Numbered from the stretch's first letter, positions 30,875 to 45,119 are shown. The stretch: DNA of 64,000 nucleotides from a virus (IMGVR_UViG_3300021255_002065:32001-96000); one strand, 5' to 3'. Made by a program: numbers and translations. The notes: generated by a model from the sequence alone, not told the origin.

Positions 30875-33286
30875 ATGGAGAAGAAAGTGCAATTAAAAGA
30901 ACAAGAGATTGTTGGACAAGAGGTTGTATTATCCGATATTTATCCAAAAACAGATACCACATCTGTTGAAGATCCTGTGACTGGAGCATCGTTGGATGTC
31001 AAGTTGGATTATCTTGTAGAAATGATCAATGACAAACTCACACGTGTTGTGAATTCTGTTAACAATAGAACAGGTGTTGTTGTATTGGATGCATCTGATG
31101 TTGGTTTGGGAAATGTAGACAATGTGTCTTATGCAGAAATCAAAGAATGGACAGATGATGCCATCGTCCAAATGTTTGCAAATAAGAAAATCATATTGGC
31201 AGATACACAAGCATCATTAGATGACTGGATGGAGACAAATAATGATCCAATCTATGACAACGTATTATTCTATATACAATCGATTGATGAAAACAACGAA
31301 TATCGTGGTAGGATTGGTTATTTGAGATATAATACAAATAATGATACATTGTATATGTCTGAATACAAAGCCATCAATACAATTGGTGAAACAGACCAAA
31401 GCCTCGTTTACCAAAATGGAAAATTGAAAGTAAGTATATCTGCTATATTCGCAAATGTATTATATAATGCAGATGATGGATTACGGGTAGACTGGGATCG
31501 AACAGGACATTTATTGTATACTTTTAATTCCATCTATGATTTTTCAAATTTAAATAATACATTAGATGGATTATTGTTGACAGATGATCATTATGGAGAT
31601 GAATCAGCTCCAAATATAGATGTCAGAATTAATGATCGAAATGTGATTAATAAGACAACGGGTCAATCTTTATTTAAATTAAATTATGACAGTATTAAGA
31701 ATAAAGCAGGTTTTAAATTATTGGATGATGGGATATCTAGTGCATATATCATCATCACAAATAGTGAAAATGATATTGCTCAAATTGAAAATATCGATTC
31801 TTTGTCGATCACACCAGAATTAATTCATCATAATACATTAGTTGGTATCTTGAGTCATTCCCGTAACACGGGTCGTTGGATGTTAAGACTTATTGCAATA
31901 AAGCAAGCAGCGTCATGGGGTTTAACAACAGATCCTGTATATCAAACACCAAACACGATTCGACATGTCAATGACAGTATTATGAGAGTGGAAACAATCG
32001 GTGATACATCCGGCATTCAAGTGTTGTCAAAACCAACACAATATGACATTGCAAATGTAGCTGATGATGGTAATTACAATAAGTCTATCCCGAATTCACA
32101 AATGAATTGGAAGTTTACTCCAGAAGGAATTCATGAAATTTATACAACTGCACCTACCAGACAAGGTGGACTGTTTATTCCGACAGATGCATCATTAATG
32201 ACATACTCTTATGATGAATATGGTTTGAAACCAGAATTAAAGAATGCATCAACAGAATTAGCATCATCCAGAATTGATAACTGGTTTGCAAATACACCAT
32301 ACCATCTGGATCAAACACAATTAGAATCTCATGAGGGCTATCTTAATAAACCAACATTTATTGGCATCAATCTTGTGAAATGGAAAAATGAGGTTGAAGA
32401 TGGTGGTGACACTGCAATTACTTTAATCCCCATCTCTGGATTAAAAGTAATTGATGCATATGATGCTAATAAACATGGAGCATTAACATGGGCTGATTTA
32501 GGACTGGATGAAACAGTTGATCATGAACGATTATTGAAAGATGCAAATGTCTTATCACCATTTGATTTACCTTTTACAGGTGGACTCATGGTGAATGTTG
32601 GGAAAGGTTTGGAAATCATGCCAACAGCAGTACCAGAACATGGCGAGGATTTCAATACACAAGGGAAAGTGAATGTGCGTATCGGTAATGGTTTGACATT
32701 TGATGATTATGGACGTATTGAAATTGCGGATGGTGCATTCGGTGCGGATACTTCATTTGATCGAATCGCCGAATTCCAATACGGAGATAAGTCTTATCAA
32801 TATCTGAATGAGATTGTAAACAATCCAAATCGACATCAAATTATGCATGAAGATCAGTTGTTGGATGGTTCAGCAACAAAAACCATATTCCGTTTGGGCG
32901 ATGGTTTACGATTAAAATATATCGAAGAGGATTTCCCACAACTTTTGTTATTCCAATTTACTATGTCACAATTGCGAAATAGTGGAATCTTTGATGAAAG
33001 TAATGTATTAGATGACATGACATTTGTTGATTTAAAAACAAGAATCGCAACATTGTATCATTCCACTGATGGGTTGGATTATGATAAATTGGTATCCGAT
33101 AGCAAATCCATTTTATATAAAAATGATTATGTGGAAAACTTTGTTAGCTATGGTATGTTATTACATCTGGGAGCTAGACTGGGTAAAACCGCAACAGAAT
33201 TGAGTATTGGATTAACAACGTCTGATCTTGAAACATTGTATGTTACAAAATATCCAGATTACGAGGGAAAAATAAAACCAGCATAA
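30875..33286 (+). CDS. Tail fibre-like structural protein
   Basis: VNSVNNRTGVVVLDASDVGLGNVDN tail-fibre repeat and several (V/L)xxGxGL motifs. Confidence 0.65.
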   Translation: MEKKVQLKEQEIVGQEVVLSDIYPKTDTTSVEDPVTGASLDVKLDYLVEMINDKLTRVVNSVNNRTGVVVLDASDVGLGNVDNVSYAEIKEWTDDAIVQMFANKKIILADTQASLDDWMETNNDPIYDNVLFYIQSIDENNEYRGRIGYLRYNTNNDTLYMSEYKAINTIGETDQSLVYQNGKLKVSISAIFANVLYNADDGLRVDWDRTGHLLYTFNSIYDFSNLNNTLDGLLLTDDHYGDESAPNIDVRINDRNVINKTTGQSLFKLNYDSIKNKAGFKLLDDGISSAYIIITNSENDIAQIENIDSLSITPELIHHNTLVGILSHSRNTGRWMLRLIAIKQAASWGLTTDPVYQTPNTIRHVNDSIMRVETIGDTSGIQVLSKPTQYDIANVADDGNYNKSIPNSQMNWKFTPEGIHEIYTTAPTRQGGLFIPTDASLMTYSYDEYGLKPELKNASTELASSRIDNWFANTPYHLDQTQLESHEGYLNKPTFIGINLVKWKNEVEDGGDTAITLIPISGLKVIDAYDANKHGALTWADLGLDETVDHERLLKDANVLSPFDLPFTGGLMVNVGKGLEIMPTAVPEHGEDFNTQGKVNVRIGNGLTFDDYGRIEIADGAFGADTSFDRIAEFQYGDKSYQYLNEIVNNPNRHQIMHEDQLLDGSATKTIFRLGDGLRLKYIEEDFPQLLLFQFTMSQLRNSGIFDESNVLDDMTFVDLKTRIATLYHSTDGLDYDKLVSDSKSILYKNDYVENFVSYGMLLHLGARLGKTATELSIGLTTSDLETLYVTKYPDYEGKIKPA

Positions 33287-33299
33287 TGGAGGTGTTAAT

Positions 33300-34052
33300 A
33301 TGCCATTGATTGAATTGAATACGGGTGATGGTTTGTCCACTTCTAAATTACAAGTAAAATTGGATACTGTCACACCAAATAATGATTTATGTGTATACGC
33401 AGATGGATTATATGTGAACGGTAGCACCTCTGATGGTTCTGGTGGTATTAAATTGAAAAAGAAACTCCATTATTATTACATCAATACAGATATGAGTCCA
33501 TGGGATGCAAACTATAATGGAGATAATGACAAATTCGAGAATCACATCTGTTGTGATTGTCAAGCACATCGTTGTTGGGATGCTACATTTGATACAGATG
33601 ATGAAGCAACCAGAGTACCAACTTTAGTATCTGGAAAAAATGAAGAAGACAAATTTCGTCCGGAAATCGATTGGGTATTACCGGGAGATTTCTTCCGTGT
33701 CAAAGTAGATGAGAACAGATATGAATACTTCATCATCACGGAAGTATCACCAGGTCCAACAACAAGAACATGTTCTGGATGTGGTCAATTAATTTATCCC
33801 TATGATGGATATTGTAAACATGGCAATCCGAAATATTATTATAATCAAACTGATAATCCCGCATATGATCCTGAAGCAGAAGGAAATGAAGTAACAAGTG
33901 TGAATGAAAATAATTATGAAGCACCAAAGATTTGTCCGATCTGTGGACAACCCATACTAAAACAATCAACCGAAGGTGTGGATGAGTTAATCGGGTTGCC
34001 AGGTAATAAACCGGTATCTTGGGCTTCTTTAGGAATTGCAGGTGATTGGTAA
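33300..34052 (+). CDS. Tail-associated protein with Zn-ribbon insert
   Basis: MPLIELNTGDGL N-terminus; CSGC and CPIC pairs. Confidence 0.55.
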   Translation: MPLIELNTGDGLSTSKLQVKLDTVTPNNDLCVYADGLYVNGSTSDGSGGIKLKKKLHYYYINTDMSPWDANYNGDNDKFENHICCDCQAHRCWDATFDTDDEATRVPTLVSGKNEEDKFRPEIDWVLPGDFFRVKVDENRYEYFIITEVSPGPTTRTCSGCGQLIYPYDGYCKHGNPKYYYNQTDNPAYDPEAEGNEVTSVNENNYEAPKICPICGQPILKQSTEGVDELIGLPGNKPVSWASLGIAGDW

Positions 34053-34465
34053 TGCCAGTGATTGAAATTACAACAGATACATCATTGGTATCAAATGATG
34101 ATGGTTTGTCATTACAATTATCCAAACGATCGGCAAATCGATTGGAATTTAATGATAAAGGTGAATTGACATTAAAAGAGGTAAAGGCGACGGGTTATCT
34201 ACCATTGAATGGTGTCATCGGAGAATATGATGTCCCCATGGAACAAATTGGTGCTGATTCCTCATGTACACGTTTGGCAAACTGGAACGATACAAATGGT
34301 GACGTGAAAGAAACTGGAGCAACTGGAATAGAAGGTAGAGATGGTGTTAATTTGATCGGTCTGTTTACTGAACTCTTGACAAATGATGGATATGATTTAA
34401 GTGTTACCTTTTGGCCAAAGGAACCTTATGCCAAAAATGAAACATACAAAGGAGAGTGGAGTTAA
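34052..34465 (+). CDS. Tail-associated protein
   Basis: MPVIEI N-terminus similar to neighbours; TAATG coupling. Confidence 0.55.
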   Translation: MPVIEITTDTSLVSNDDGLSLQLSKRSANRLEFNDKGELTLKEVKATGYLPLNGVIGEYDVPMEQIGADSSCTRLANWNDTNGDVKETGATGIEGRDGVNLIGLFTELLTNDGYDLSVTFWPKEPYAKNETYKGEWS

Positions 34466-35358
34466 TGCCATCGATTGATATTGAAGCTGGAAAGGGAATC
34501 AAAATCACCGATGATGGTGAACTCACTGTTGCATTGGATGCTTCTAAATCAACAGAATTAAAAGGTTCTGAAAATGGGATTTGGGCAAAGGGTCAGAAGA
34601 CACTCAGTGACCAATGTACGGATGAATGGAGTGTGATCACCAAACCAAATGAAACTGGTGATGAAAAAACCATTTATGGTAATGCCAGAGTTGTTGGAAA
34701 ATGTTATGTATTTTGCATGTTTCGAACAAGACGATTGTGGTCTTCTGATGATGCAGATGATCCAGACCGTGTTCGTATCCTTCGTACAAAAGACCCATCT
34801 GTCGCAACTGCAGATGATTTAAAATCCGCAGATGATTTGGTTCGAGAAATCAATTTACAACGCTTTTATGCAGCAAAAGAATCTGATGGTTCTTATGCTG
34901 GATCTCGAGTTATCCCGAGACCCGGTTCACTAATTGCATTTTCTGATGTGGTATATGGCACAACGGTTGGTTCAACAAGAATCTACGAAGATGGATCCAG
35001 ATTTCCTTGTTTGACTACTTATACAAAGAATGGAAATACCATTGAGAAGTTAACTGCTCCACAAAAGATTTATGCATTGTTCATGGTTACACGTGCACAA
35101 TATACAGAAGCTGGTGCAAATAAACAGAATTATTCCAAATCAACATTCCCGGGTGCAACACCATCTGCTTATCGATGCTTGATGAGGATTCGACTGAAAT
35201 GTTTGTGGAGTGATCAAACATCATTCCCAATCCTTGTGAATAGTTATGGATGGACAAAAGGTTCTTATTTACTAGGAACTCATGAATCAGCATCAAGAGA
35301 CTATGGTCAGTGGGATTTAACTAACATTTATGAAGACAGCCATTACAATATTTCATAA
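34465..35358 (+). CDS. Tail-associated protein
   Basis: MPSIDIEAGKGI N-terminus; TAATG coupling. Confidence 0.55.
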   Translation: MPSIDIEAGKGIKITDDGELTVALDASKSTELKGSENGIWAKGQKTLSDQCTDEWSVITKPNETGDEKTIYGNARVVGKCYVFCMFRTRRLWSSDDADDPDRVRILRTKDPSVATADDLKSADDLVREINLQRFYAAKESDGSYAGSRVIPRPGSLIAFSDVVYGTTVGSTRIYEDGSRFPCLTTYTKNGNTIEKLTAPQKIYALFMVTRAQYTEAGANKQNYSKSTFPGATPSAYRCLMRIRLKCLWSDQTSFPILVNSYGWTKGSYLLGTHESASRDYGQWDLTNIYEDSHYNIS

Positions 35359-35386
35359 TAACATTTATTGTAGGAGGAATGCAAAT

Positions 35387-36742
35387 ATGCAAAAAGAATA
35401 CATTGCAAATGAACAAATGTCATTCAAGGATAAATCGTCATTAGCTGAAGAAAAACATGGTCTTCGTGGTGTCATTCAGATTTATCGTAAGAACAAAGAA
35501 ACTGGTGAAGTTTCATTCTGGGATGAAAGTGAGAACACGATCGTACTGGGTGGGTATCAATGGATATTGATGAAAATGTTCGGTTTGTTCTTGGACAGTT
35601 CTCATGGTAAAGTGACAGATGATTTGACAAGAGATACAACATTGGCAATTCCAGATTTGAATAACAGAATGCAAATTGGTGTCAATCCCGGTGAAGATAC
35701 ACCAGAAGGAAGTGCATCTGGTTCAATCGATGGATATACCAGAATGGAAGATAATATCGCCGTAAATCATATCTGCCAAGGATTCATGATTGGTAATGGT
35801 GGTGCTGGCGAAGATTCTGTCACCACAAAGAATACATCTTATTCCTTTATTAATCTCCGGAATCCAATTCCATTCCGTGAAACAACTTCTACTGATACAA
35901 CAACAGCTGGGAAATATCTTGGTTGTTACTTTGGTAATGAAGATGCGAATGCTGGTAAAATTGTAAAGGCAGCATACATTAAGAAGTTTGATTCCACTCC
36001 TCATATCTATCATTCTTGGTGGGTAGATGGTCAGAGATGGGATTATGTTGATCCAGTTACACAGAACTATCTTGGTCCTGATACAGATACAACTGTTTGG
36101 AAGACAAATCGTATTGAGACATATGTGGAATGCAAATTATCCATTTCCGATACGGATTGTCAAGATTACTTCAAGCATGCTGGCGTTACCAGTACTGCAC
36201 AAATCAATGAATTAGGTTTGGTTGCATTTGATACTGTTTTGGGTGAACGCTCTATCATCGAAACATGCTACAATCAAAAGATTTATGATTTCTTGAAGAT
36301 TGTATATACTGCAAAAGGTGATAAAACTCCCACATCCAATCAGAATAAGATGTTTAAGTTGTTAGCAACCGAAATCAAAACGATTCTGATGCCTCTTGCA
36401 TCTCAAATCAGTCAGAGCAATATCCAAGCATTCATTGAAGCAATTCCTGACTTTACTGCAGAAGATTTGGAATCTGATGAATATCCAGTTGAGAATTATC
36501 AGTTGCTGCAACAAGAATTTTCCGCTGATAGTAATATCGGTGCACAAGCATTCTATAATCAGGATGACACCATCCAGTATGTGGAAGATAATTTCTTGAC
36601 TAAATTGCAAGATGCTGATACAGTGAATTTGACATTGGACGAAGCACAGAGAATCAAACTGATCACATATTATACATTCAATAGTATTCCGATTTCTCAA
36701 AACTGGGAAATTCTGATTAACTATCGAATCTATGCAAATTAA
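35387..36742 (+). CDS. Baseplate/tail structural protein
   Basis: LRGVIQIY..ENTIVLGG..GFMIGNGG..INELGL..INYRIY pattern of myophage baseplate/fibre-anchor proteins. Confidence 0.6.
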   Translation: MQKEYIANEQMSFKDKSSLAEEKHGLRGVIQIYRKNKETGEVSFWDESENTIVLGGYQWILMKMFGLFLDSSHGKVTDDLTRDTTLAIPDLNNRMQIGVNPGEDTPEGSASGSIDGYTRMEDNIAVNHICQGFMIGNGGAGEDSVTTKNTSYSFINLRNPIPFRETTSTDTTTAGKYLGCYFGNEDANAGKIVKAAYIKKFDSTPHIYHSWWVDGQRWDYVDPVTQNYLGPDTDTTVWKTNRIETYVECKLSISDTDCQDYFKHAGVTSTAQINELGLVAFDTVLGERSIIETCYNQKIYDFLKIVYTAKGDKTPTSNQNKMFKLLATEIKTILMPLASQISQSNIQAFIEAIPDFTAEDLESDEYPVENYQLLQQEFSADSNIGAQAFYNQDDTIQYVEDNFLTKLQDADTVNLTLDEAQRIKLITYYTFNSIPISQNWEILINYRIYAN

Positions 36743-36760
36743 ATAGGAGGAGGTGATTTC

Positions 36761-37360
36761 GTGTCTGATGTAAATCATGAAAATGAATTGAAGATGCGAG
36801 AGGAATATTCTAATTCCATACTGAATAATGTTGCAACTGTCATTGGATACTGGAGTCATATTGGTTGGTCTACGGTAAAGATTACAATTCCAATGGAACC
36901 AAAACCTTCCCAGAGACCTAGGTTGTCTGGATATCGGGTTTACGTCCCAGGAGCATACAAAAACACAGCTTTTTTCCATAAGAATGTATTACCCAAACTT
37001 GGTGATTTATGGATTAATACACCATGTAAAACTAAAATAGATATCTATGTTAAAACACCAACTTCTTTTTCCAAAGCACAAAAGTTATTGGCTGAGATGA
37101 AAATACTTCGCCCGTGGGTTAGAGCTGGTGATATAGACAACTTTGAAAAAAGTTGTCTGGATGCGATGGTTGGTAATAAAAAAAGAAAACATAAAGGAAT
37201 CATGTCAGATGATTGCATTGTCGTGGATATGGATTCGCACAAATACTATTCCATTACACCGAGATATGAAATTGAAATCACCTACATGAACAAAGTGCCA
37301 GAATGTATCAAACGAATTTTAAAAATCGAAGAACCTCAGCGAGAGGTTGACGGGGATTAA
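36761..37360 (+). CDS. rusA: RusA-like Holliday junction resolvase
   Basis: PxPSQRPR N-terminus, RP..xDIDNFEKSCLD and IMSDDCIV catalytic acidic motifs. Confidence 0.8.
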   Translation: MSDVNHENELKMREEYSNSILNNVATVIGYWSHIGWSTVKITIPMEPKPSQRPRLSGYRVYVPGAYKNTAFFHKNVLPKLGDLWINTPCKTKIDIYVKTPTSFSKAQKLLAEMKILRPWVRAGDIDNFEKSCLDAMVGNKKRKHKGIMSDDCIVVDMDSHKYYSITPRYEIEITYMNKVPECIKRILKIEEPQREVDGD

Positions 37361-38544
37361 TCCCCGTCATCTCTCATTTCATTTAACATTTTTCTTTTTA
37401 GATATTTCATATCATAAACAGTAACATGGTTCAATCCCAATCTATGAACTTCTTTGATTGCCTTAGATGGTGACATATCACATTTTTTGAGAATCTTCTT
37501 CAATATTTCTCTTTCATCCTCCTTTATTTTTCGATTAAGCTTCATATTTGGAAAATTAAATTCTTTCATTGATTCTTTTACAGTACTGATGTTGGCCACA
37601 GTAATATCAGTGTATCCCATTTCATGTAATTCTTTTAACACTGGATTTCTGTCACCATTATATTTGATTAACAATTCCCTTGTCAATTCTAATACATCAT
37701 CATATAACTTTTTATAGTGTAGGATAGTAACATTTTCTCCAGATTCAATAAAGAATTTCTTCGCATTCTGAACCATGCTAATTGAGATTTCATTGTATCC
37801 CATTTTGTGTAATTCGACAGTTGTTTCATGTGGATGCCAATCATTTCGGATAAGAACATCTTTTACTAATTTTAGTAAAAATGGATTCATAACAGATTTA
37901 CTCAGATTTGTCAATCTGGCATGTTGGTTGTTTTGTGCATATGTTACAACCTCGAGATTATCAATCCTATTGTTGTCAGTGAAGCCATCAATGTGATTGA
38001 CAATTAATTCGGGTGTCAATCCTAAAAATGCATTTGCAACGATTCTGTGAATGGGGTATGTCTTTCGAGTCCCGTCTTCGATTCTGAAGAATGATTGTTT
38101 ATATCCACAACAATATGTTCCATGTAAAGGTCCGATATTGTCATGTTTAATTCTACCCCATGACGATATGAAATATCTATTTTTGACGATGGGTGGTAAT
38201 TCCACTGGTTTCCAGATTTCGACATCTTCCACCCATTGAAGATTATCGACTGAGTTATCAGTTTTATCTCCATTGAGATGTAGAATTTCCAATTCTCCAG
38301 ATATTAATTCATCTGGGATTGGTATGAATGTTAATGCAACAAGTTTATCTGTGCGAACCAGGTGGTTTGAGTGAAAATCATCAAATACGACGAGATTGTA
38401 ACTATATCCATTCGTCGAAATATACGGTTCGACTAATGTTGGACTTCCGTTGATATTGTATCTAAAATTTCCTAATGTTGAAATTTCACAAAAGGATGCA
38501 ATTGATAAATCATTAACGGAGTTCCAAATTTCATTTTTTGTCAT
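37357..38544 (-). mobile_element. Free-standing homing endonuclease gene (two NUMOD4/HNH modules plus three C-terminal HTH-like repeats)
   Basis: HLNGDKTDNSVDNLQWV and HRIVANAF..VNHIDGFTDNNRIDNLE..NNQHA; ELHxMGY repeats; opposite strand to the operon. Confidence 0.85.
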
Positions 38545-38634
38545 ATGTGTAAACCTACTTTCTATGTTTATTTTTGAGACAATGGTGATTCATATCTCAG
38601 ATTAATATTATATATCTATCATTGTGATTTTATA

Positions 38635-38814
38635 TTGCAACCGAATAAGAAACGTGGTCACAGAGGAATCTTGGCTGATGATTCACTTGTATATGAAGTA
38701 TCTGCAAATAAGTATTATTCCATCACGCCACGATATGAAATCACCATCACATATATGACGAAGATTCCAGAATGTATTAAGAATATTATGAAATTAAGAA
38801 AGGTAGATGATTGA
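38635..38814 (+). pseudogene. Orphaned duplicate 3' end of the RusA-like gene
   Basis: Translates LQPNKKRGHRGILADDSLVYEVSANKYYSITPRYEITITYMTKIPECIKNIMKLRKVDD*, homologous to the C-terminus of 36761-37360; no RBS. Confidence 0.85.
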
Positions 38815-40408
38815 TATGCCACGTGATGAATACAAAGATTGGATAGCACGAAATGGTGGTCCGAGTGATGAAGATTATGAGACCACTATGGATACAATTG
38901 GTAATACAAAAGATTTATATAAATCTTCACTTGGTAGATTTCAAAAGGGAATGAAGAAAGCGAAAAGTACCAAATCTATTATTGGTATGGCTTCTCGTAA
39001 TACCTTTGATTTCCCTGTGTTTATTTCCAAGAGTGTACCTCTTGATTATGCAACTGCAACAACAATGTTATTGGAACAATTGTATGCGGCATATGTACAG
39101 ATGGCTGTATCTCAGAATCCATATGTTGATGCAAAGAGTGTTGAATGTGGTGGTCTATTAGCCAAGTTCAATACCAACATCACAAAGTATGTTGAATATG
39201 TTGCATTGACAGACACAGAATATCAACACGATGCTTGTCATAATGAAATCTATACGGAAGATGCAGAATTCATATTTGATATGATTGATGTATCTGATGA
39301 AGATGCAGAAGGTATTCTACAAGAAATGGATTATGAACCATTATCTGAATTCGATGACTTCTTCCAAGAAGGCGGCGGCGCCGGTGGTGGTGCTGGTGGT
39401 GGTGCCGGAGCCGGAGCAGGTGCTGGGGCTCCCGCTATTCCAGTTATGCAGGCAAGAAACATACAAGCTCGTCAGGATATTCAAAATGTCGATGCTCGCG
39501 GAAATCGTGTGGATTATGATGCACATGGGAATATTGTCGGACGTCATCGTGATACTCCTTTTGAGCAATATAACAGGGACGTATTCCGTCGTCGTCTTAA
39601 GAACAGAGCTGATTCCGAAAAAGCTGTTGCCGATGCTGAAATTGCTGCACGTGATTTGAAGAATTACAACAAACATGAACGTGAGAACACAGAAGGGCAT
39701 CGTATGAAGATGATGAATCGTTCTCCTGAAATATTAAAAGAGGAAGACATGAGAAAGATGAATTCCATGAAACCTTTATTGATGAAACTTCAGATGAGAG
39801 TGACTCGTCCAGGTCAGCCAGATGATCCACGTGAATTTGTAATCGGTGTACACTGTCATGCTCGTTTGATTGAACCATCCACATTGCCAGATGTTGTCAA
39901 GTTCCCATTGAAAGAGATGAATGCAATTGCTCGTCGTGCAAAATGGAAAGCTGGCGAATTGAAATTCATGAGAGATATCGTATTCCAGATTAAAGAAAGA
40001 AAACAAACCGCTGTCGATGCAAAGGATCCAAAACGCAAATGGTATCGTCGTTTATATGAATTAGCACATTCTAAAGGTGATGCAAATGTGTCTGGGGCTG
40101 TATCTGGAAATGGTACAACTGGTCTAATTCCGAATGCAACGATTATGATTACAAATGGAGATGTGGAAAGTATTAAATCTCAAACCAAACTTGATGTATT
40201 AAAACCATCATTGGCAAAGAGATTGTGTAATGAATTATTCCTCATTTCATTTGTGGTAATTGATCAAGATGCAGAATCAATCAAACTTTATATTCCTGAA
40301 TTATATAAAGATTGGGAAATCCATTCACTTGCAAGTGTTGAAAAACAGCTTGCTGAATTATCTACTGCAGGTTCTAAGACAAGAGACCTGTTCAAATTGA
40401 TTAAGTAA
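38807..40408 (+). CDS. Virion structural protein (probable head protein)
   Basis: 533-aa ORF; acidic stretch ending FFQE followed by a Gly/Ala linker. Confidence 0.55.
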   Translation: MIDMPRDEYKDWIARNGGPSDEDYETTMDTIGNTKDLYKSSLGRFQKGMKKAKSTKSIIGMASRNTFDFPVFISKSVPLDYATATTMLLEQLYAAYVQMAVSQNPYVDAKSVECGGLLAKFNTNITKYVEYVALTDTEYQHDACHNEIYTEDAEFIFDMIDVSDEDAEGILQEMDYEPLSEFDDFFQEGGGAGGGAGGGAGAGAGAGAPAIPVMQARNIQARQDIQNVDARGNRVDYDAHGNIVGRHRDTPFEQYNRDVFRRRLKNRADSEKAVADAEIAARDLKNYNKHERENTEGHRMKMMNRSPEILKEEDMRKMNSMKPLLMKLQMRVTRPGQPDDPREFVIGVHCHARLIEPSTLPDVVKFPLKEMNAIARRAKWKAGELKFMRDIVFQIKERKQTAVDAKDPKRKWYRRLYELAHSKGDANVSGAVSGNGTTGLIPNATIMITNGDVESIKSQTKLDVLKPSLAKRLCNELFLISFVVIDQDAESIKLYIPELYKDWEIHSLASVEKQLAELSTAGSKTRDLFKLIK

Positions 40409-40423
40409 TAGGAGGGTTGATTT

Positions 40424-41599
40424 ATGAAAGAACCTGAAAGCAATTTAAAAGGAAATTTGTCGGATGATCAAATTCAAAAAGCCATTGTGAATGTGATGAA
40501 AGAATTAAATGACATTTATAAGAACAAAAGTTCCGATGAATACAAGATGGCAGGAGACATTACCAAGTCTCCTGTCTATGATGGAATTGAATCTGCTGTT
40601 GCAAATCTGAGTACATTAAAAGGTTTTCCAAAACAAGATGTCTCAGATTATCAGAATCTGTTTAATGCATTACACAAACCCATGTACAAGAAGATGGTTG
40701 CTGAATATCTGAAATCTCCGAATGAACAGAATACGGCATTTACAACAATCTTCACACTTGGTTATCGTACATTATTGGGAGATTTGTCACGTATCTATGC
40801 AGCAACAGAAGCCACAGAAAGTGGTATCGTATACCATCCTGACCAAGCTGCTAAACAACGTGCATTGACAAAATCCTTTATTAAAGCATTCAATAAGAAT
40901 ATTGATGATGAATACAACAAAGCTGTTCGTAGAAATGGAAATAAACCAAAGATGCATCAGGAAGGTGCTTTGTTCTCCGCAATTGGTTCTGGTGTTACCG
41001 CATTATCTACATTCTCTCGTGCACATGAACTTGGACCGATCACTGCATTCTTCCGTGACATTTTCAATTTCATCTTCGGTGCTCGAAAGGAATTGAATCC
41101 TATCTCCTTCATTAGTCATCGTTTGACCAAAAGTTATGATTCTTTGGTAGATCGATTCGAAGATACACAGAAGATGTATAATGCAACAAAAGAAGCTTAT
41201 GAAGAATATAAGAATTCTCCCGGAAGAAAAGATATGGCGATTGAAGGTAGATATCTGAGAAACCTTAAGAAATACAATATTGCCATGAAAACATTACAAG
41301 CAAAGCTTGCACACTATGACTCTCGTGCACAAGCAGAAGCTGAAGAAAAGATGTATAAAGCAAGAATGGAACAACGTCAGAAGATGAAAGAAGAAGCAGA
41401 AAGAAAGGCTTCTGAAAGAAAGGAGAATACAAGACCAACTCCCAAACCAGAACCGACACGTCCAACTCCTTCTATTCCAAAGCCAACAACATCTGTTCCA
41501 AAAGAAATGCCGAAGCCCGAACCTTCTCCATCTGAACAAAAACCAACGGAAGAGAAACCCAAACCACCAAAGGTTGACACGGGGGATCTTGATTTCTAA
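40424..41599 (+). CDS. Virion structural protein with Pro/Lys-rich tail
   Basis: MHQE-GA motif, amphipathic FFRDIFNFIF, coiled coil, PKPEP tail. Confidence 0.55.
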   Translation: MKEPESNLKGNLSDDQIQKAIVNVMKELNDIYKNKSSDEYKMAGDITKSPVYDGIESAVANLSTLKGFPKQDVSDYQNLFNALHKPMYKKMVAEYLKSPNEQNTAFTTIFTLGYRTLLGDLSRIYAATEATESGIVYHPDQAAKQRALTKSFIKAFNKNIDDEYNKAVRRNGNKPKMHQEGALFSAIGSGVTALSTFSRAHELGPITAFFRDIFNFIFGARKELNPISFISHRLTKSYDSLVDRFEDTQKMYNATKEAYEEYKNSPGRKDMAIEGRYLRNLKKYNIAMKTLQAKLAHYDSRAQAEAEEKMYKARMEQRQKMKEEAERKASERKENTRPTPKPEPTRPTPSIPKPTTSVPKEMPKPEPSPSEQKPTEEKPKPPKVDTGDLDF

Positions 41600-41612
41600 A
41601 ATGATATAATGT

Positions 41613-41632
41613 GAGGGCCCATATGGGCCCTC
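41613..41632 (+). terminator. Palindromic terminator
   Basis: GAGGGCCCATATGGGCCCTC followed by a T-rich tract. Confidence 0.7.
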
Positions 41633-41651
41633 TTCTATTTTTTTAATTTTG

Positions 41652-41687
41652 TATCTATATATAATTAATATGATATAGAAATATATC
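41652..41687 (+). promoter_or_regulatory. Putative phage early promoter
   Basis: TATATATAATTAATATGATATAGAAATATATC, matches 5315-5350. Confidence 0.6.
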
Positions 41688-41783
41688 TATAATATTTCAT
41701 CCTTATGATCAACTCATAAGAACCTAAGTTGAATGCATATACACATAGGTCGATCATGTAGGATTCCAAAAGGAGGTAATCTT

Positions 41784-42311
41784 ATGAGAAGAATGTTTAG
41801 AGAATGCAGAGAGACCAGAGACGTTGAACGTCGCTGGAGCGAAAGACTGGAAGCAGCATCCAAATTTACTCAGTCTGAAGAGTTCAAATTATCAGAGGGA
41901 ATGTCCCCTGAGGAAAGAGCCAAATATGAAAGAATGGCGAGAGAACACCTGGGTATCCCGCAGGATGCTGAAGTAGACTGGTATGTGGCTGGCAAAATAG
42001 CAAAAGAAATTCTCGAAATCAAGCGAGATCAAAAACTTGGCAAAGGGAACATCCTCTTTGGAATCGGGAAGAAAAGCGATGAGGAAATCAAGGAAATCCT
42101 CGAAGCGAGGAAGCCTGAAATGCCTAAATTAAGAGAGGTTGAAAAGTCCCTCTCTAACGAAGGCGTACTTAAGGCTGAAACCCAACCGCAGCAGTCTCAG
42201 CAGTCTTATTCGGACAAATACCAGGCTGCAATGCAGGCAGCCCAGCAATTGGCATCTTCTGGTTACTATACACTGGAAGATGCCGTTCGCATTGTAATGG
42301 CAAATCTCTAA
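41784..42311 (+). CDS. Early hypothetical protein, C-terminal domain shared with next gene
   Basis: AAGGAGGT RBS; EVEKxLSNEGVL..KYxAAMQAAQxLAxSGYYTLE..IVMANL. Confidence 0.75.
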   Translation: MRRMFRECRETRDVERRWSERLEAASKFTQSEEFKLSEGMSPEERAKYERMAREHLGIPQDAEVDWYVAGKIAKEILEIKRDQKLGKGNILFGIGKKSDEEIKEILEARKPEMPKLREVEKSLSNEGVLKAETQPQQSQQSYSDKYQAAMQAAQQLASSGYYTLEDAVRIVMANL

Positions 42312-42835
42312 AACAAGCGACCTGAGTAAGTCATTAAACTGCTCAATCATATACAAATAAGTCCAGCTCATGACTTGAGAAACCGAGCGTAATTAAAGGA
42401 GGAAATCATTATGTTTGAATTCGGTAATTTTGAAGAAATCCGCGAAATAGACGAAATAGATGAACTCGATTCCAATACTTCTAATGGATACAAGTATACG
42501 AGTGCTGAAGTATGGAAGATGGGAAGAGCTGCTATTGAAAAGCTTTTTGAAGCCAACAAAGATATCTTATTCCCAGAGGTTGAAAAAGACCTCTCTAACG
42601 AAGGGGTATTGAGAGCTGAAACCAAGGCACAGGCTCAGGCACAGCAGCAATCTTACGATGAAAAGTATAGAGCTGCAATGCAGGCAGCTCAGGAGTTGGC
42701 AGCCTCTGGCTATTATACACTGGAACAGGCAATCCAGATTGTAATGGCGAATCTCTAACAGTAAGCGACCTGAGTAAGTCGTTAAAACTGCTCAATCATA
42801 AACATAAGTCCAGCTCATGACTTGAGAAACCGAGC
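42135..42835 (+). repeat. Two ~255-bp direct repeats (42135-42388 and ~42577-42835) covering gene 3' half plus intergenic pseudoknots
   Basis: Near-identical AAGCGACCTGAGTAAGTC..AAACTGCTCAATCAT..AAGTCCAGCTCATGACTTGAGAAACCGAGC in both copies. Confidence 0.9.
42411..42758 (+). CDS. Early hypothetical protein, paralogue of 41784-42311
   Basis: AAGGAGG RBS; shared C-terminal ~60 aa. Confidence 0.75.
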   Translation: MFEFGNFEEIREIDEIDELDSNTSNGYKYTSAEVWKMGRAAIEKLFEANKDILFPEVEKDLSNEGVLRAETKAQAQAQQQSYDEKYRAAMQAAQELAASGYYTLEQAIQIVMANL

Positions 42836-42857
42836 ATACCCTAAGGAGGTAATTATT

Positions 42858-43190
42858 ATGAAAAATATTGTTCAATTTTTGCAGGCAGTCGAAATCGCTG
42901 ATATTATCAGCAAAGAGCTTCAGAATGACTCCAGATATCTTGCTGATTATATCCTGGAAGCTGCAAAAGAATCCGGGTATTATATCTGGTCTCAGTCAAT
43001 GGAGGTTGCTGAATCCGCAGTAAAATTATCAATTCCGGTACTGAAATACGTACCTGAACAAGAGTGTGATGCTTCAGTTATCTATAAAATCCAGGCTGCA
43101 TTTGTGATCAACAATATCAAACAGTTGGACGAGATGAAGACTGCAGAAAGAAAGGCTCATCAAGAGCCAACTTTCATGTATTTCATCTAA
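42858..43190 (+). CDS. Early hypothetical protein
   Basis: AAGGAGGT RBS before MKNIVQ. Confidence 0.7.
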   Translation: MKNIVQFLQAVEIADIISKELQNDSRYLADYILEAAKESGYYIWSQSMEVAESAVKLSIPVLKYVPEQECDASVIYKIQAAFVINNIKQLDEMKTAERKAHQEPTFMYFI

Positions 43191-43303
43191 CAGAACATCC
43201 CTGCTGAAAAGCAGGGAGGTGAGTATATGAATTATCGTATATTGACCTCTCTGCTTTTTTCTTTTCTTGTACACACATATTGTTTAATTGAGGGGGTGAT
43301 ACA

Positions 43304-43711
43304 ATGATATTGTATCAAGCAATACAAACAAGTGCAATGATGTTATATTACTACTACTTGAGTTATAAACGGCTTCCATTACACTTAGACCAAGATGTGT
43401 TAAATCAATTTACATCACACATCATACAATTGTTCAAATGGAAATTCCCAACAATGTCATTGACAACTGATGAATTCAATGATCCGAATTTCATATTATT
43501 TGATGAACCATTTGATGAAGTATATCAATCAGATACTCGAGAGAACATGTATTCTTCTATGTTGCATGATTTAATTGAATTTCCATTAAAGCATTCGCTT
43601 ATCATAACAGATGATTATACCATACTACAAATACTACCGATTCCATTTGATAGTTTGGATATCACTCATGGTATGATAATAAACTTCTTCACTCCAATAT
43701 TGGATAGATAA
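43304..43711 (+). CDS. Hypothetical protein
   Basis: GAGGGGG RBS, 135-aa ORF. Confidence 0.55.
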   Translation: MILYQAIQTSAMMLYYYYLSYKRLPLHLDQDVLNQFTSHIIQLFKWKFPTMSLTTDEFNDPNFILFDEPFDEVYQSDTRENMYSSMLHDLIEFPLKHSLIITDDYTILQILPIPFDSLDITHGMIINFFTPILDR

Positions 43712-43728
43712 TATGATAACGTAGGCAG

Positions 43729-43929
43729 GTGAATATTATGACATTTAACATTCAAATTCTAGATATGAATCACAATCACGTCGCAGATGCAATGAATGCA
43801 TCCATGGAAGATGTATTAAAGTTCCTGAGAAAAGGAATGGTTGTGATTAACATGGCAACTGGATTGGAAATGAGTGAATCCGAATTACTCAATACAGTCG
43901 GTGTTGCTGATTGTGTTATGCCAGGATAA
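43729..43929 (+). CDS. Small hypothetical protein
   Basis: 66-aa ORF filling the gap; start uncertain. Confidence 0.55.
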   Translation: MNIMTFNIQILDMNHNHVADAMNASMEDVLKFLRKGMVVINMATGLEMSESELLNTVGVADCVMPG

Positions 43930-44025
43930 ATAAAATAATTTTGGCATATATAGTATTACAGTGTATTAGAGATACAATGTATCCTAATCATAAATTAATT
44001 ATTTTATTACAGGAGGTAATCTATT

Positions 44026-44466
44026 ATGATTACAACAGCAAATCATTCGTTAGCCGCTATCGCTGAATGGGGAAACCAGGCATTCAACAATGTGAATGGA
44101 ACCACTCCCGAACTTCAGCAAGCTTTCCGCCAGACTTTGAAAGCTGGCATTAAGAAAGCAAATTATCCGAGCTGTGAAGCAGAACTCGGTATCATCGATG
44201 AAATCAATGACTTCGATGTGACACCGATTGCCGAACAGATTCCCAATGCAGTTGCCAAGTACATGGCTGAAACAGGTCGTGCACTAAATCTTCCCGCACC
44301 GGATGAGAATACAGCACCTGCAACACTCAAACTCATTCACAAGGATGAAACTGTCAATACAGGTATCATTCAGATGGGTGACAAGAAAGGTCAGCCATAT
44401 GAATCCAAGGTAGCTGCTCATGATGAATACAAAATCAAGAGCAACAACAAACAGTTCAAAGACTAA
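44026..44466 (+). CDS. Hypothetical protein, probably highly expressed early
   Basis: AGGAGGT RBS, upstream promoter-like motif at 43945-43970. Confidence 0.7.
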   Translation: MITTANHSLAAIAEWGNQAFNNVNGTTPELQQAFRQTLKAGIKKANYPSCEAELGIIDEINDFDVTPIAEQIPNAVAKYMAETGRALNLPAPDENTAPATLKLIHKDETVNTGIIQMGDKKGQPYESKVAAHDEYKIKSNNKQFKD

Positions 44467-44525
44467 TCAGTATTACAACAATATCCCCCACATATGTGGG
44501 GGATGACTTTATGGAGGTTTTTATC

Positions 44526-45119
44526 ATGGAAAATAATGTATTTAAGATGCTCAAAGAACAGATAATGCCAGATATCGAATTCGCATATGATGCATTGATA
44601 AAGGTGGTTGACAAATTATATGAGACTTATCCGGATTTAAAATTGACAGTGAAGGGTGTTCCAAGCATGATTAATATCTGTGCTACCTTTAATACTGACG
44701 GTAGAACATTTAAATGTGACATGCGTCTCATTCCGCAGATATATACAAATGGAACACCTGTCGCATATATCGGAATAAATGAAGAAGTACAATCAGCTCG
44801 AGAACAATTCCATCATATTCCCAATGGATACACGTCAAATTTGACAAATAGTCCAACCGTGAATGTGCAAACAAGTCCAACTCTAGCAGAATTGTCTTCG
44901 AGTATCAACAATATTTGTTCCATTGATTATGGCAAGAAATATAAAAATGTCATGAAATACGACAAGGCTGTCAAGCGGTACAACAATGAAGCAATGTTTG
45001 ATTGGATTTACAATTTCATCAAAGACCTTGATAAAGAGATGGATGATGGTGGAATTCCAATTGACCTGGAGCTGGAATCAAAAATAAGACGCAATGAGTA
45101 TGATGATGAAGAATATTAA
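44526..45119 (+). CDS. Hypothetical protein
   Basis: GGAGGT RBS before MENNVF. Confidence 0.65.
   Translation: MENNVFKMLKEQIMPDIEFAYDALIKVVDKLYETYPDLKLTVKGVPSMINICATFNTDGRTFKCDMRLIPQIYTNGTPVAYIGINEEVQSAREQFHHIPNGYTSNLTNSPTVNVQTSPTLAELSSSINNICSIDYGKKYKNVMKYDKAVKRYNNEAMFDWIYNFIKDLDKEMDDGGIPIDLELESKIRRNEYDDEEY

Follow-up and report, generated by a model that had tools for sequence, protein, structure and literature searches.

The locus described here raises the question of how an endonuclease gene comes to lie between two versions of the end of one and the same gene, and what becomes of the gene that it invades. Homing endonucleases of phages, the products of homing endonuclease genes (HEGs), are thought to persist in essential genes by means of self-splicing introns, inteins, intergenic sites or the splitting of genes. 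We examined a stretch of 64,000 nucleotides (IMGVR_UViG_3300021255_002065:32001-96000; hereafter the window), taken from a 148-kb genome fragment of an uncultured virus, in which the last codons of a RusA-like resolvase gene occur twice and are separated by an antisense HNH gene. The original prediction, made from the sequence of the window, had proposed an intron-less and intein-less homing cassette (a replacement C-terminus, a terminator and a HEG) inserted near the active-site codons of the resolvase.

Anatomy of the composite locus

The rusA gene of the window (36761-37360, plus strand, 199 aa), whose product belongs by its sequence to the RusA family of Holliday-junction resolvases, matches the Pfam RusA model from end to end (E 2.9e-18, model positions 1-124/124; phrog_140; 235 homologues) and is a hybrid of three parts: a native-like 5' part, a donor-like middle and a cassette-borne 3' tail. 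The middle (36850-37168, plus strand; codons ~30-136, ~320 bases), delimited by a jump in divergence from the endonuclease-free relative L009 (see below), is a probable co-conversion tract of donor type, while the replacement tail (37169-37360, plus strand; codons 137-199 and the stop) constitutes the left end of the insert and carries the last invariant Asp (D151) together with the K-Y-Y-S / P-R-x-E block. The gene converges on that of the endonuclease with a 4-base overlap, and the stops of both lie inside a palindromic hairpin with a perfect 9-bp stem (37348-37369), which was recovered by terminator scan and folding (-25.5 kcal/mol, z -4.9) and is likely to act as a bidirectional terminator. 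Because both genes code through the palindrome arms, their unrelated products share the last three residues. Convergent genes ending inside a palindrome were also observed in the loci L005, L004 and L040, with up to six common C-terminal residues in L040.

The free-standing HNH homing endonuclease gene (37357-38544, minus strand, 395 aa; Pfam HNH_3 and NUMOD4) is the sole minus-strand gene within a plus-strand block (30875-45119) and has a G+C content slightly below that of the flanks. It is preceded by an AT-rich spacer of 93 bases (38545-38637) that has no homology to L009, forms the right end of the insert, and presumably holds the endonuclease promoter and ribosome-binding site. The promoter motif that had been attributed to the gene was not recovered: the spacer contained no sigma-70-like site on the minus strand, and no upstream motif was conserved across the six lineages introduced below.

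Beyond the spacer follows an orphan rusA tail (38638-38814, plus strand; 58 codons and a stop), homologous to the native gene and detached from any 5' part, which would serve as the right-hand homology arm for homing. Its open frame (38626/38635-38814, plus strand) still matches the last 30 positions of the Pfam RusA model and shares 36/59 residues with positions 139-197 of the hybrid protein (BLASTP, E 2e-24), so that the tail is present twice, as had been predicted. A comparison of their first 55 codons shows the two tails to differ at 63/165 bases; at ~62% identity they do not represent a recent in-situ duplication. The next gene (38816-40408, plus strand; virion structural protein-like, phrog_23804), whose product is 96% identical in amino acids to its L009 homologue, is the downstream flank common to the endonuclease-free relatives. 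Its ATG begins one base after the orphan stop (38812-38814), and the overlap with the orphan that had been proposed exists only if the alternative in-frame ATG at 38807 is used, in which case it would measure 8 bases. An assembly artefact was considered and ruled out, the composite being present in independent assemblies (the window record, the sister phage L017, and a 272,952-base contig holding P0121).

The endonuclease and the resolvase

Within the endonuclease, a degenerate N-terminal HNH_3-like unit is followed by NUMOD4, by the catalytic HNH_3 (~residues 183-209) and by three helix-turn-helix-like C-terminal repeats, the two HNH_3 stretches (Pfam E 7.8e-18; cut-off 24.8 bits) agreeing with the double-HNH gene of the original prediction. 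A profile search against the PDB matched I-HmuI (1u3e; E 3e-13, residues 110-214 of the profile), and the catalytic motif (N-H...N...N..H-A) is invariant in 17 relatives. By its motifs, the protein would be placed among the HNH endonucleases of the HNH_3 / I-HmuI-like type.

As regards the resolvase, all of the 15 homologues compared share D124, D126, K130 and D151; by motif spacing, we take these residues to be the equivalents of D70, D72, K76 and D91 of Escherichia coli RusA. Since searches of the PDB sequences with RusA, whether the query was one sequence or a profile, returned no match, the mapping of the catalytic residues rests on Pfam and motif spacing. The full-length model match and the retention of the acidic catalytic residues nevertheless point to membership in RusA. 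The insertion does lie close to the active-site codons, with the D-x-D...K motif on one side and the last invariant Asp on the other, and as it separates K130 from D151, the 5' part alone would lack an essential acidic residue that the spare tail restores. The orphan of the window has neither an ATG nor a ribosome-binding site. In the locus L042, a Shine-Dalgarno-like G-G-A-G-G and, in frame, an ATG stand before the orphan (L042:3764-3949, minus strand in the locus), which could be translated.

Which of the two tails is native

The relatives of this locus were found in metagenomes, among jumbo phages (130-295 kb) of the rumen and gut that make up a large family. Relatives of the endonuclease came from a profile scan of metagenomes, and an IMG/VR scan with the endonuclease alone gave no match. 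In the GenBank phage collection, no match to 35300-40500 was obtained by blastn, and tblastn with RusA retrieved only relatives of <35% identity, in Firmicutes phages.

Among the relatives whose locus is undisturbed, the closest (L009) is a complete IMG/VR genome of 294,548 bases that harbors one rusA and no endonuclease gene. Its sequence matches 33261-37321 with 93.8% identity and 38638-41696 with 94.3%, its single rusA tail aligning to both copies in the window. It had been specified beforehand that the rusA 3' end of a HEG-free relative should match the orphan copy, and this was found: per 165 bases, the L009 tail differs at 6 positions from the orphan of L017, at 29 from that of the window, and at 63 from the in-frame tail (18 synonymous and 22 non-synonymous codon differences). 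At the protein level, the window orphan is identical to the native L009 tail at 45/50 residues versus 32/48 to its own in-frame counterpart. Furthermore, the ATG of the next gene in L009 begins one base after the rusA stop, a junction identical to that of the orphan in the window, which upholds the ancestral character that the prediction had given to this end. The homology between orphan and native tail starts exactly at 38638, i.e. at the Gln codon 137. As the L009 tail matches the orphan and not the in-frame copy, the insert corresponds to 37169-38637 (replacement tail, hairpin, endonuclease and spacer) and comprises 1469 bases between rusA codons 136 and 137. By these comparisons the orphan groups with the element-free relatives, and the inserted terminus is divergent and apparently foreign.

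Signatures of homing

The divergence between the window and L009 amounts to 3-4% up to ~36850, rises to ~16% up to ~37100, and reaches ~40% from there and in the tail. The rise from ~36850 onward indicates that donor-type sequence also makes up the greater part of rusA ahead of the insert, as co-conversion predicts. The sister phage L017, an independent assembly that is 95.6% identical overall, encodes an identical endonuclease protein, and the mismatches between the two phages are unevenly distributed (21/1466 in the cassette, 177/4354 in the flanks; Fisher p 2.7e-7), the cassette having diverged one third as much as the flanks. The block of low divergence spans about 37115-38666 and, taken with the donor-like tract (~36850-37168), is what co-conversion of the flanks would be expected to leave. 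Moreover, the locus is polymorphic for the presence of the endonuclease, which is carried by the window and L017 and is absent from L009 (~94% identity in the flanks) as well as from L006 and L007 (97%). No donor close to the cassette of the window was found outside its own lineage.

We also observed that a patch within the orphan (38667-38775) differs from both the L017 orphan and the native L009 tail at 25/110 bases, mostly synonymously, while both of its sides are nearly identical. It looks like a small recombination tract from a third native allele; in a comparison with the in-frame copy, made with internal gene conversion in mind, a few of its positions agreed. The mostly synonymous differences of the patch suggest that the sister phages carry orphans from different functional alleles, and we read the bias between the two orphans (25 synonymous versus 9 non-synonymous codons) as the capture of such alleles; selection on the orphan would also fit. 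In the next gene, a Gly/Ala-rich low-complexity stretch (39366-39565) is a hot spot of divergence from L017, with 48 mismatches in 200 bases compared with ~4% elsewhere.

Endonuclease-free alleles with traces of the cassette

Two close relatives (L006 and L007, 97% identical to the window) lack 37359-38775 and have kept the in-frame tail. HNH-free relatives with precisely this tail had been named in advance as evidence against the homing reading, and on the face of it the two loci fit that description. In both, however, the in-frame stop is followed by the final 33-36 bases of a native tail, the join lying at a short A-T-T-R-A repeat, and this scar shows that they derive from the composite and are not ancestral states, so that they do not truly speak against homing. 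Judged by their sequence, L006 and L007 arose from the composite by deletion, or else are the outcome of abortive repair.

Another two loci (L051 and L001) lack the endonuclease, have normal downstream junctions, and possess a tail that is native except for a cassette-like patch. Such patches would be expected if the right end of the break sometimes paired with the spare tail in place of the orphan. In L001 (3763-3867), a spacer separates rusA from the next gene; its interpretation as a scar of endonuclease loss was dropped, for the native-type locus L010 (4080-4175) has the same spacer, and a native locus bearing a cassette-like patch is the better reading of L001. The spacers of these two loci (~95-105 bases, 105 in L001, versus the usual 1-2 bases) include a hairpin rich in G+C as well as a conserved stretch rich in AT, which may together form a terminator-promoter module.

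Recurrence in other phages and at a second gene

Full-length relatives of the endonuclease number 16 (35-57% identity), and in every one with a readable context the order is rusA, antisense HEG, orphan tail and next gene. This layout is shared by six lineages (the window/L017, L005, L004, L038/39, L040/41 and L042/43), and in none of the loci does the start of the orphan depart from this one rusA codon. Position 137 is Gln in all native alleles and in all seven orphans, and is Val in the window and V/M/G in the cassette alleles. In five of the seven loci, the first 50 residues of the orphan agree at 45-49/50 positions with a full-length RusA encoded on a different contig, compared with 32-37/48 for the in-frame tail of the same locus. 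Likewise, the endonuclease-free locus L053 matches the orphan of L040 at 84.5% of nucleotides, and its flanks at 72-76%.

The same design was observed at an SbcC-like gene in related jumbo phages (L036, 442-4444, on the same contig as the locus L008; and L033). Here, an SbcC-like ATPase of 847 aa (phrog_77) has a divergent in-frame tail from the Walker B motif onward, and is followed by a co-oriented HNH gene (32% identical to that of the window) and by an orphan of 56 codons that starts at the Walker B motif. These orphans are 80-82% identical to the SbcC tails of endonuclease-free genomes, the genome of L009 itself being among them, whereas the in-frame SbcC tail of L036 is 44% identical to its own orphan. 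The tail is of the orphan type in the endonuclease-free L046 and L047.

A six-frame comparison of the two flanks was run on 19 more distant relatives of the endonuclease, and in the 18 others no flanking duplication was detected (metagenome scan, E 1e-3), the flanks of L022 and L026 being too short. A second, more distant paralogue of the endonuclease, in the same record but outside the window (G000:C1:145464-146411, L045; an open frame of 360 aa with HNH_3), has a RibD_C-domain gene on one side and a GyrB-like topoisomerase gene on the other, and at this site too no flanking duplication was detected. Not every member of the wider family therefore shows the spare-end arrangement. In a tree of the tails (58 columns, FastTree, poorly resolved), those borne by cassettes did not form one clade (5 changes, no better than shuffles), and the cassette tails of distant lineages resemble their local native ones; the tail is thus probably not a single conserved module, and would recombine or be re-acquired.

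A proposed mobile cassette that brings a spare gene end

Taken together, these observations lead us to propose, with a probability of roughly 0.85, that rusA of the window has been entered by a mobile homing-endonuclease cassette, which placed a replacement tail in frame and orphaned the native one; cleavage, its site, the expression of the endonuclease and the immunity of the hybrid allele are what we infer beyond this. The anatomy of the locus, the foreign in-frame tail, the native orphan, the polymorphism, the donor-like tract, the low divergence of the cassette, and the recurrence at the same codon and in a second gene are each borne out by the sequence comparisons described above. The cassette would consist of foreign, heavily recoded last 63 codons, the palindromic hairpin, the antisense I-HmuI-like HNH gene and the spacer. 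During mixed infection, the endonuclease would attack the native rusA of a related phage, cutting or nicking it at the junction, and repair would copy the cassette, with the 5' part of rusA as the left arm and the orphan and next gene as the right one. The recipient's own tail would turn into the new orphan, and the hybrid gene would remain functional; judging from sequence only, its junction would no longer be a target because it differs from the native one. The cassette reading of the original prediction thus stands, with an orphan-type tail in L009 and a genuine hairpin at the end of the spare tail.

Four other explanations were weighed against a mobile cassette. The locus could be the relic of an old invasion, the endonuclease being now inactive or domesticated (for instance in excluding related phages, or in another nuclease role) and inherited vertically. 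The persistence of the layout across endonucleases that are only 35-57% identical could reflect such long vertical descent, and the cassette tails of L040 and L042 do resemble their own local lineages. Yet none of the 17 relatives departs from the catalytic motif, divergence between sister phages is three times lower in the cassette than in the flanks, and a single close lineage includes alleles with the endonuclease, without it and after its loss; orphans nearly identical to functional alleles elsewhere furthermore require recent capture, and we regard a relic as unlikely. Quite unlikely, in our judgement, is the view that the orphan is a maintained small gene or element (a translated C-terminal fragment of RusA, or a leader for the next gene) and that the duplication was selected for the benefit of the phage. 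An open frame in all seven loci, the excess of synonymous differences between the sister orphans, the Shine-Dalgarno-like site and ATG of L042, and the ORFs of 57-72 aa that gene callers report would all accord with it. Against these stand the missing start signals in the orphan of the window, the degenerate 5' end of that in L004, and the loss of all but 33-36 bases in L006 and L007, while a synonymous bias is also expected of freshly captured functional tails.

A tandem duplication of the rusA 3' end in situ, followed by divergence and by the independent landing of an endonuclease between the copies (the tail then being no part of the mobile unit), would account for two homologous copies in the same orientation, and for the lineage-specific residues that the in-frame tail and the orphan of L040 have in common. 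We consider it very improbable: the in-frame tail is 38% diverged in DNA from that of L009 in a genome that otherwise differs by ~6%, it is contiguous with an upstream tract diverged by ~16%, and the same junction codon was used in six lineages and the same design at sbcC. The reverse polarity, with a native in-frame tail and an orphan that arrived with the endonuclease from the donor, draws on L006 and L007, in which the in-frame tail is found next to no endonuclease. It appears extremely improbable, given that the undisturbed locus of L009 has an orphan-type tail continuous with the 94%-identical downstream flank, and that L006 and L007 themselves keep a piece of such a tail after the stop codon.

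Returning to the mobile cassette, we tentatively advance a wider reading of it, to which we would give somewhat less than even odds. According to this reading, a lineage of I-HmuI-like endonucleases in giant rumen phages may spread by carrying recoded spare ends of its target genes (a fourth way besides introns, inteins and gene splitting), and may have specialised on recombination and repair genes of the phage itself, such as rusA and sbcC. With two alternative right-hand arms at its disposal (the spare tail and the orphan), each cut would result either in gain of the cassette or in an endonuclease-free, cassette-like patch, thereby seeding resistant mosaic alleles and diversifying enzymes at their active sites.

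The locus documents a different solution to persistence in a phage, in which the HEG brings a substitute gene end, and the evolutionary series is unusually complete (naive, invaded, deletion-derivative and patch-converted alleles; six lineages and two target genes). For phage annotation and pangenomes, short 'orphan' ORFs and hybrid gene ends beside endonuclease genes are worth recognising, and the tails of such genes differ in history from their cores, which matters for phylogeny. Moreover, every native junction constitutes a predicted target site for a new HNH enzyme.

Comparison with known systems

Free-standing homing endonucleases of the T4 type (SegF, SegG, MobE), which move by 'intronless homing' (PMC2988022), resemble the present case in the placement of the gene beside or within an essential gene, in presence/absence polymorphism and in the co-conversion of flanks. 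They differ from it in being intergenic and in cutting the neighboring gene at a distance, and the review of T4 mobile elements (PMC2988022) reports no duplicated or replacement gene end (the word stem 'duplicat' is absent from it). In the 'genes in pieces', which arise through the insertion of an endonuclease gene (Aeh1 nrdA, split by mobE, and the T4 topoisomerase genes 39/60 with mobA; PMC2988022, PMC3045599), two polypeptides reassemble, whereas here the gene is whole, a substitute end being supplied and the old one discarded. A published phage example of a replacement-end homing cassette was not found, in a literature coverage that was incomplete and can offer absence of evidence only.

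With I-HmuI, an HNH nicking endonuclease of the Bacillus phage SPO1 (PDB 1u3e) and the best solved relative of the catalytic core, the enzyme of the window has in common a modular DNA-binding extension. I-HmuI is intron-encoded and has 174 residues, whereas the phage protein described here is free-standing, has 395 residues, and possesses an extra degenerate HNH_3-like unit and three helix-turn-helix-like repeats.

The closest parallel is offered by the 'gene hybrids' produced by mobile ORFs (mORFs) in fungal mitochondria (Allomyces macrogynus atp6; Glomus atp6, atp9, cox2 and nad3; Rhizopus atp9; Mortierella cox2), in which an endonuclease ORF carries a foreign C-terminus of the target gene and strands the native one (PMC3630166, citing Paquin et al. 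1994). In both cases a foreign C-terminus in phase is followed by the endonuclease ORF and, downstream, by the native C-terminus, and the native remnant matches the element-free relative while the inserted copy is divergent. The two differ in setting and enzyme (a dsDNA jumbo phage and an I-HmuI-like HNH nuclease here; mitochondria and LAGLIDADG or GIY-YIG there), and in the arrangement of the genes: the rusA HEG is antisense and convergent, with a palindromic terminator in common, and the sbcC HEG of L036 is co-oriented but separate from the target gene, whereas the mitochondrial ORF is in phase or co-transcribed. Furthermore, the targets here are recombination genes, and cutting of the element-free allele by the mORF endonuclease has been demonstrated in Allomyces (PMC3630166), whereas the phage case is known from sequence. 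We argue that the phage cassette would work like a mORF hybrid without being a member of the mitochondrial group, and that selfish elements of phages and of mitochondria are thereby linked by convergent design.
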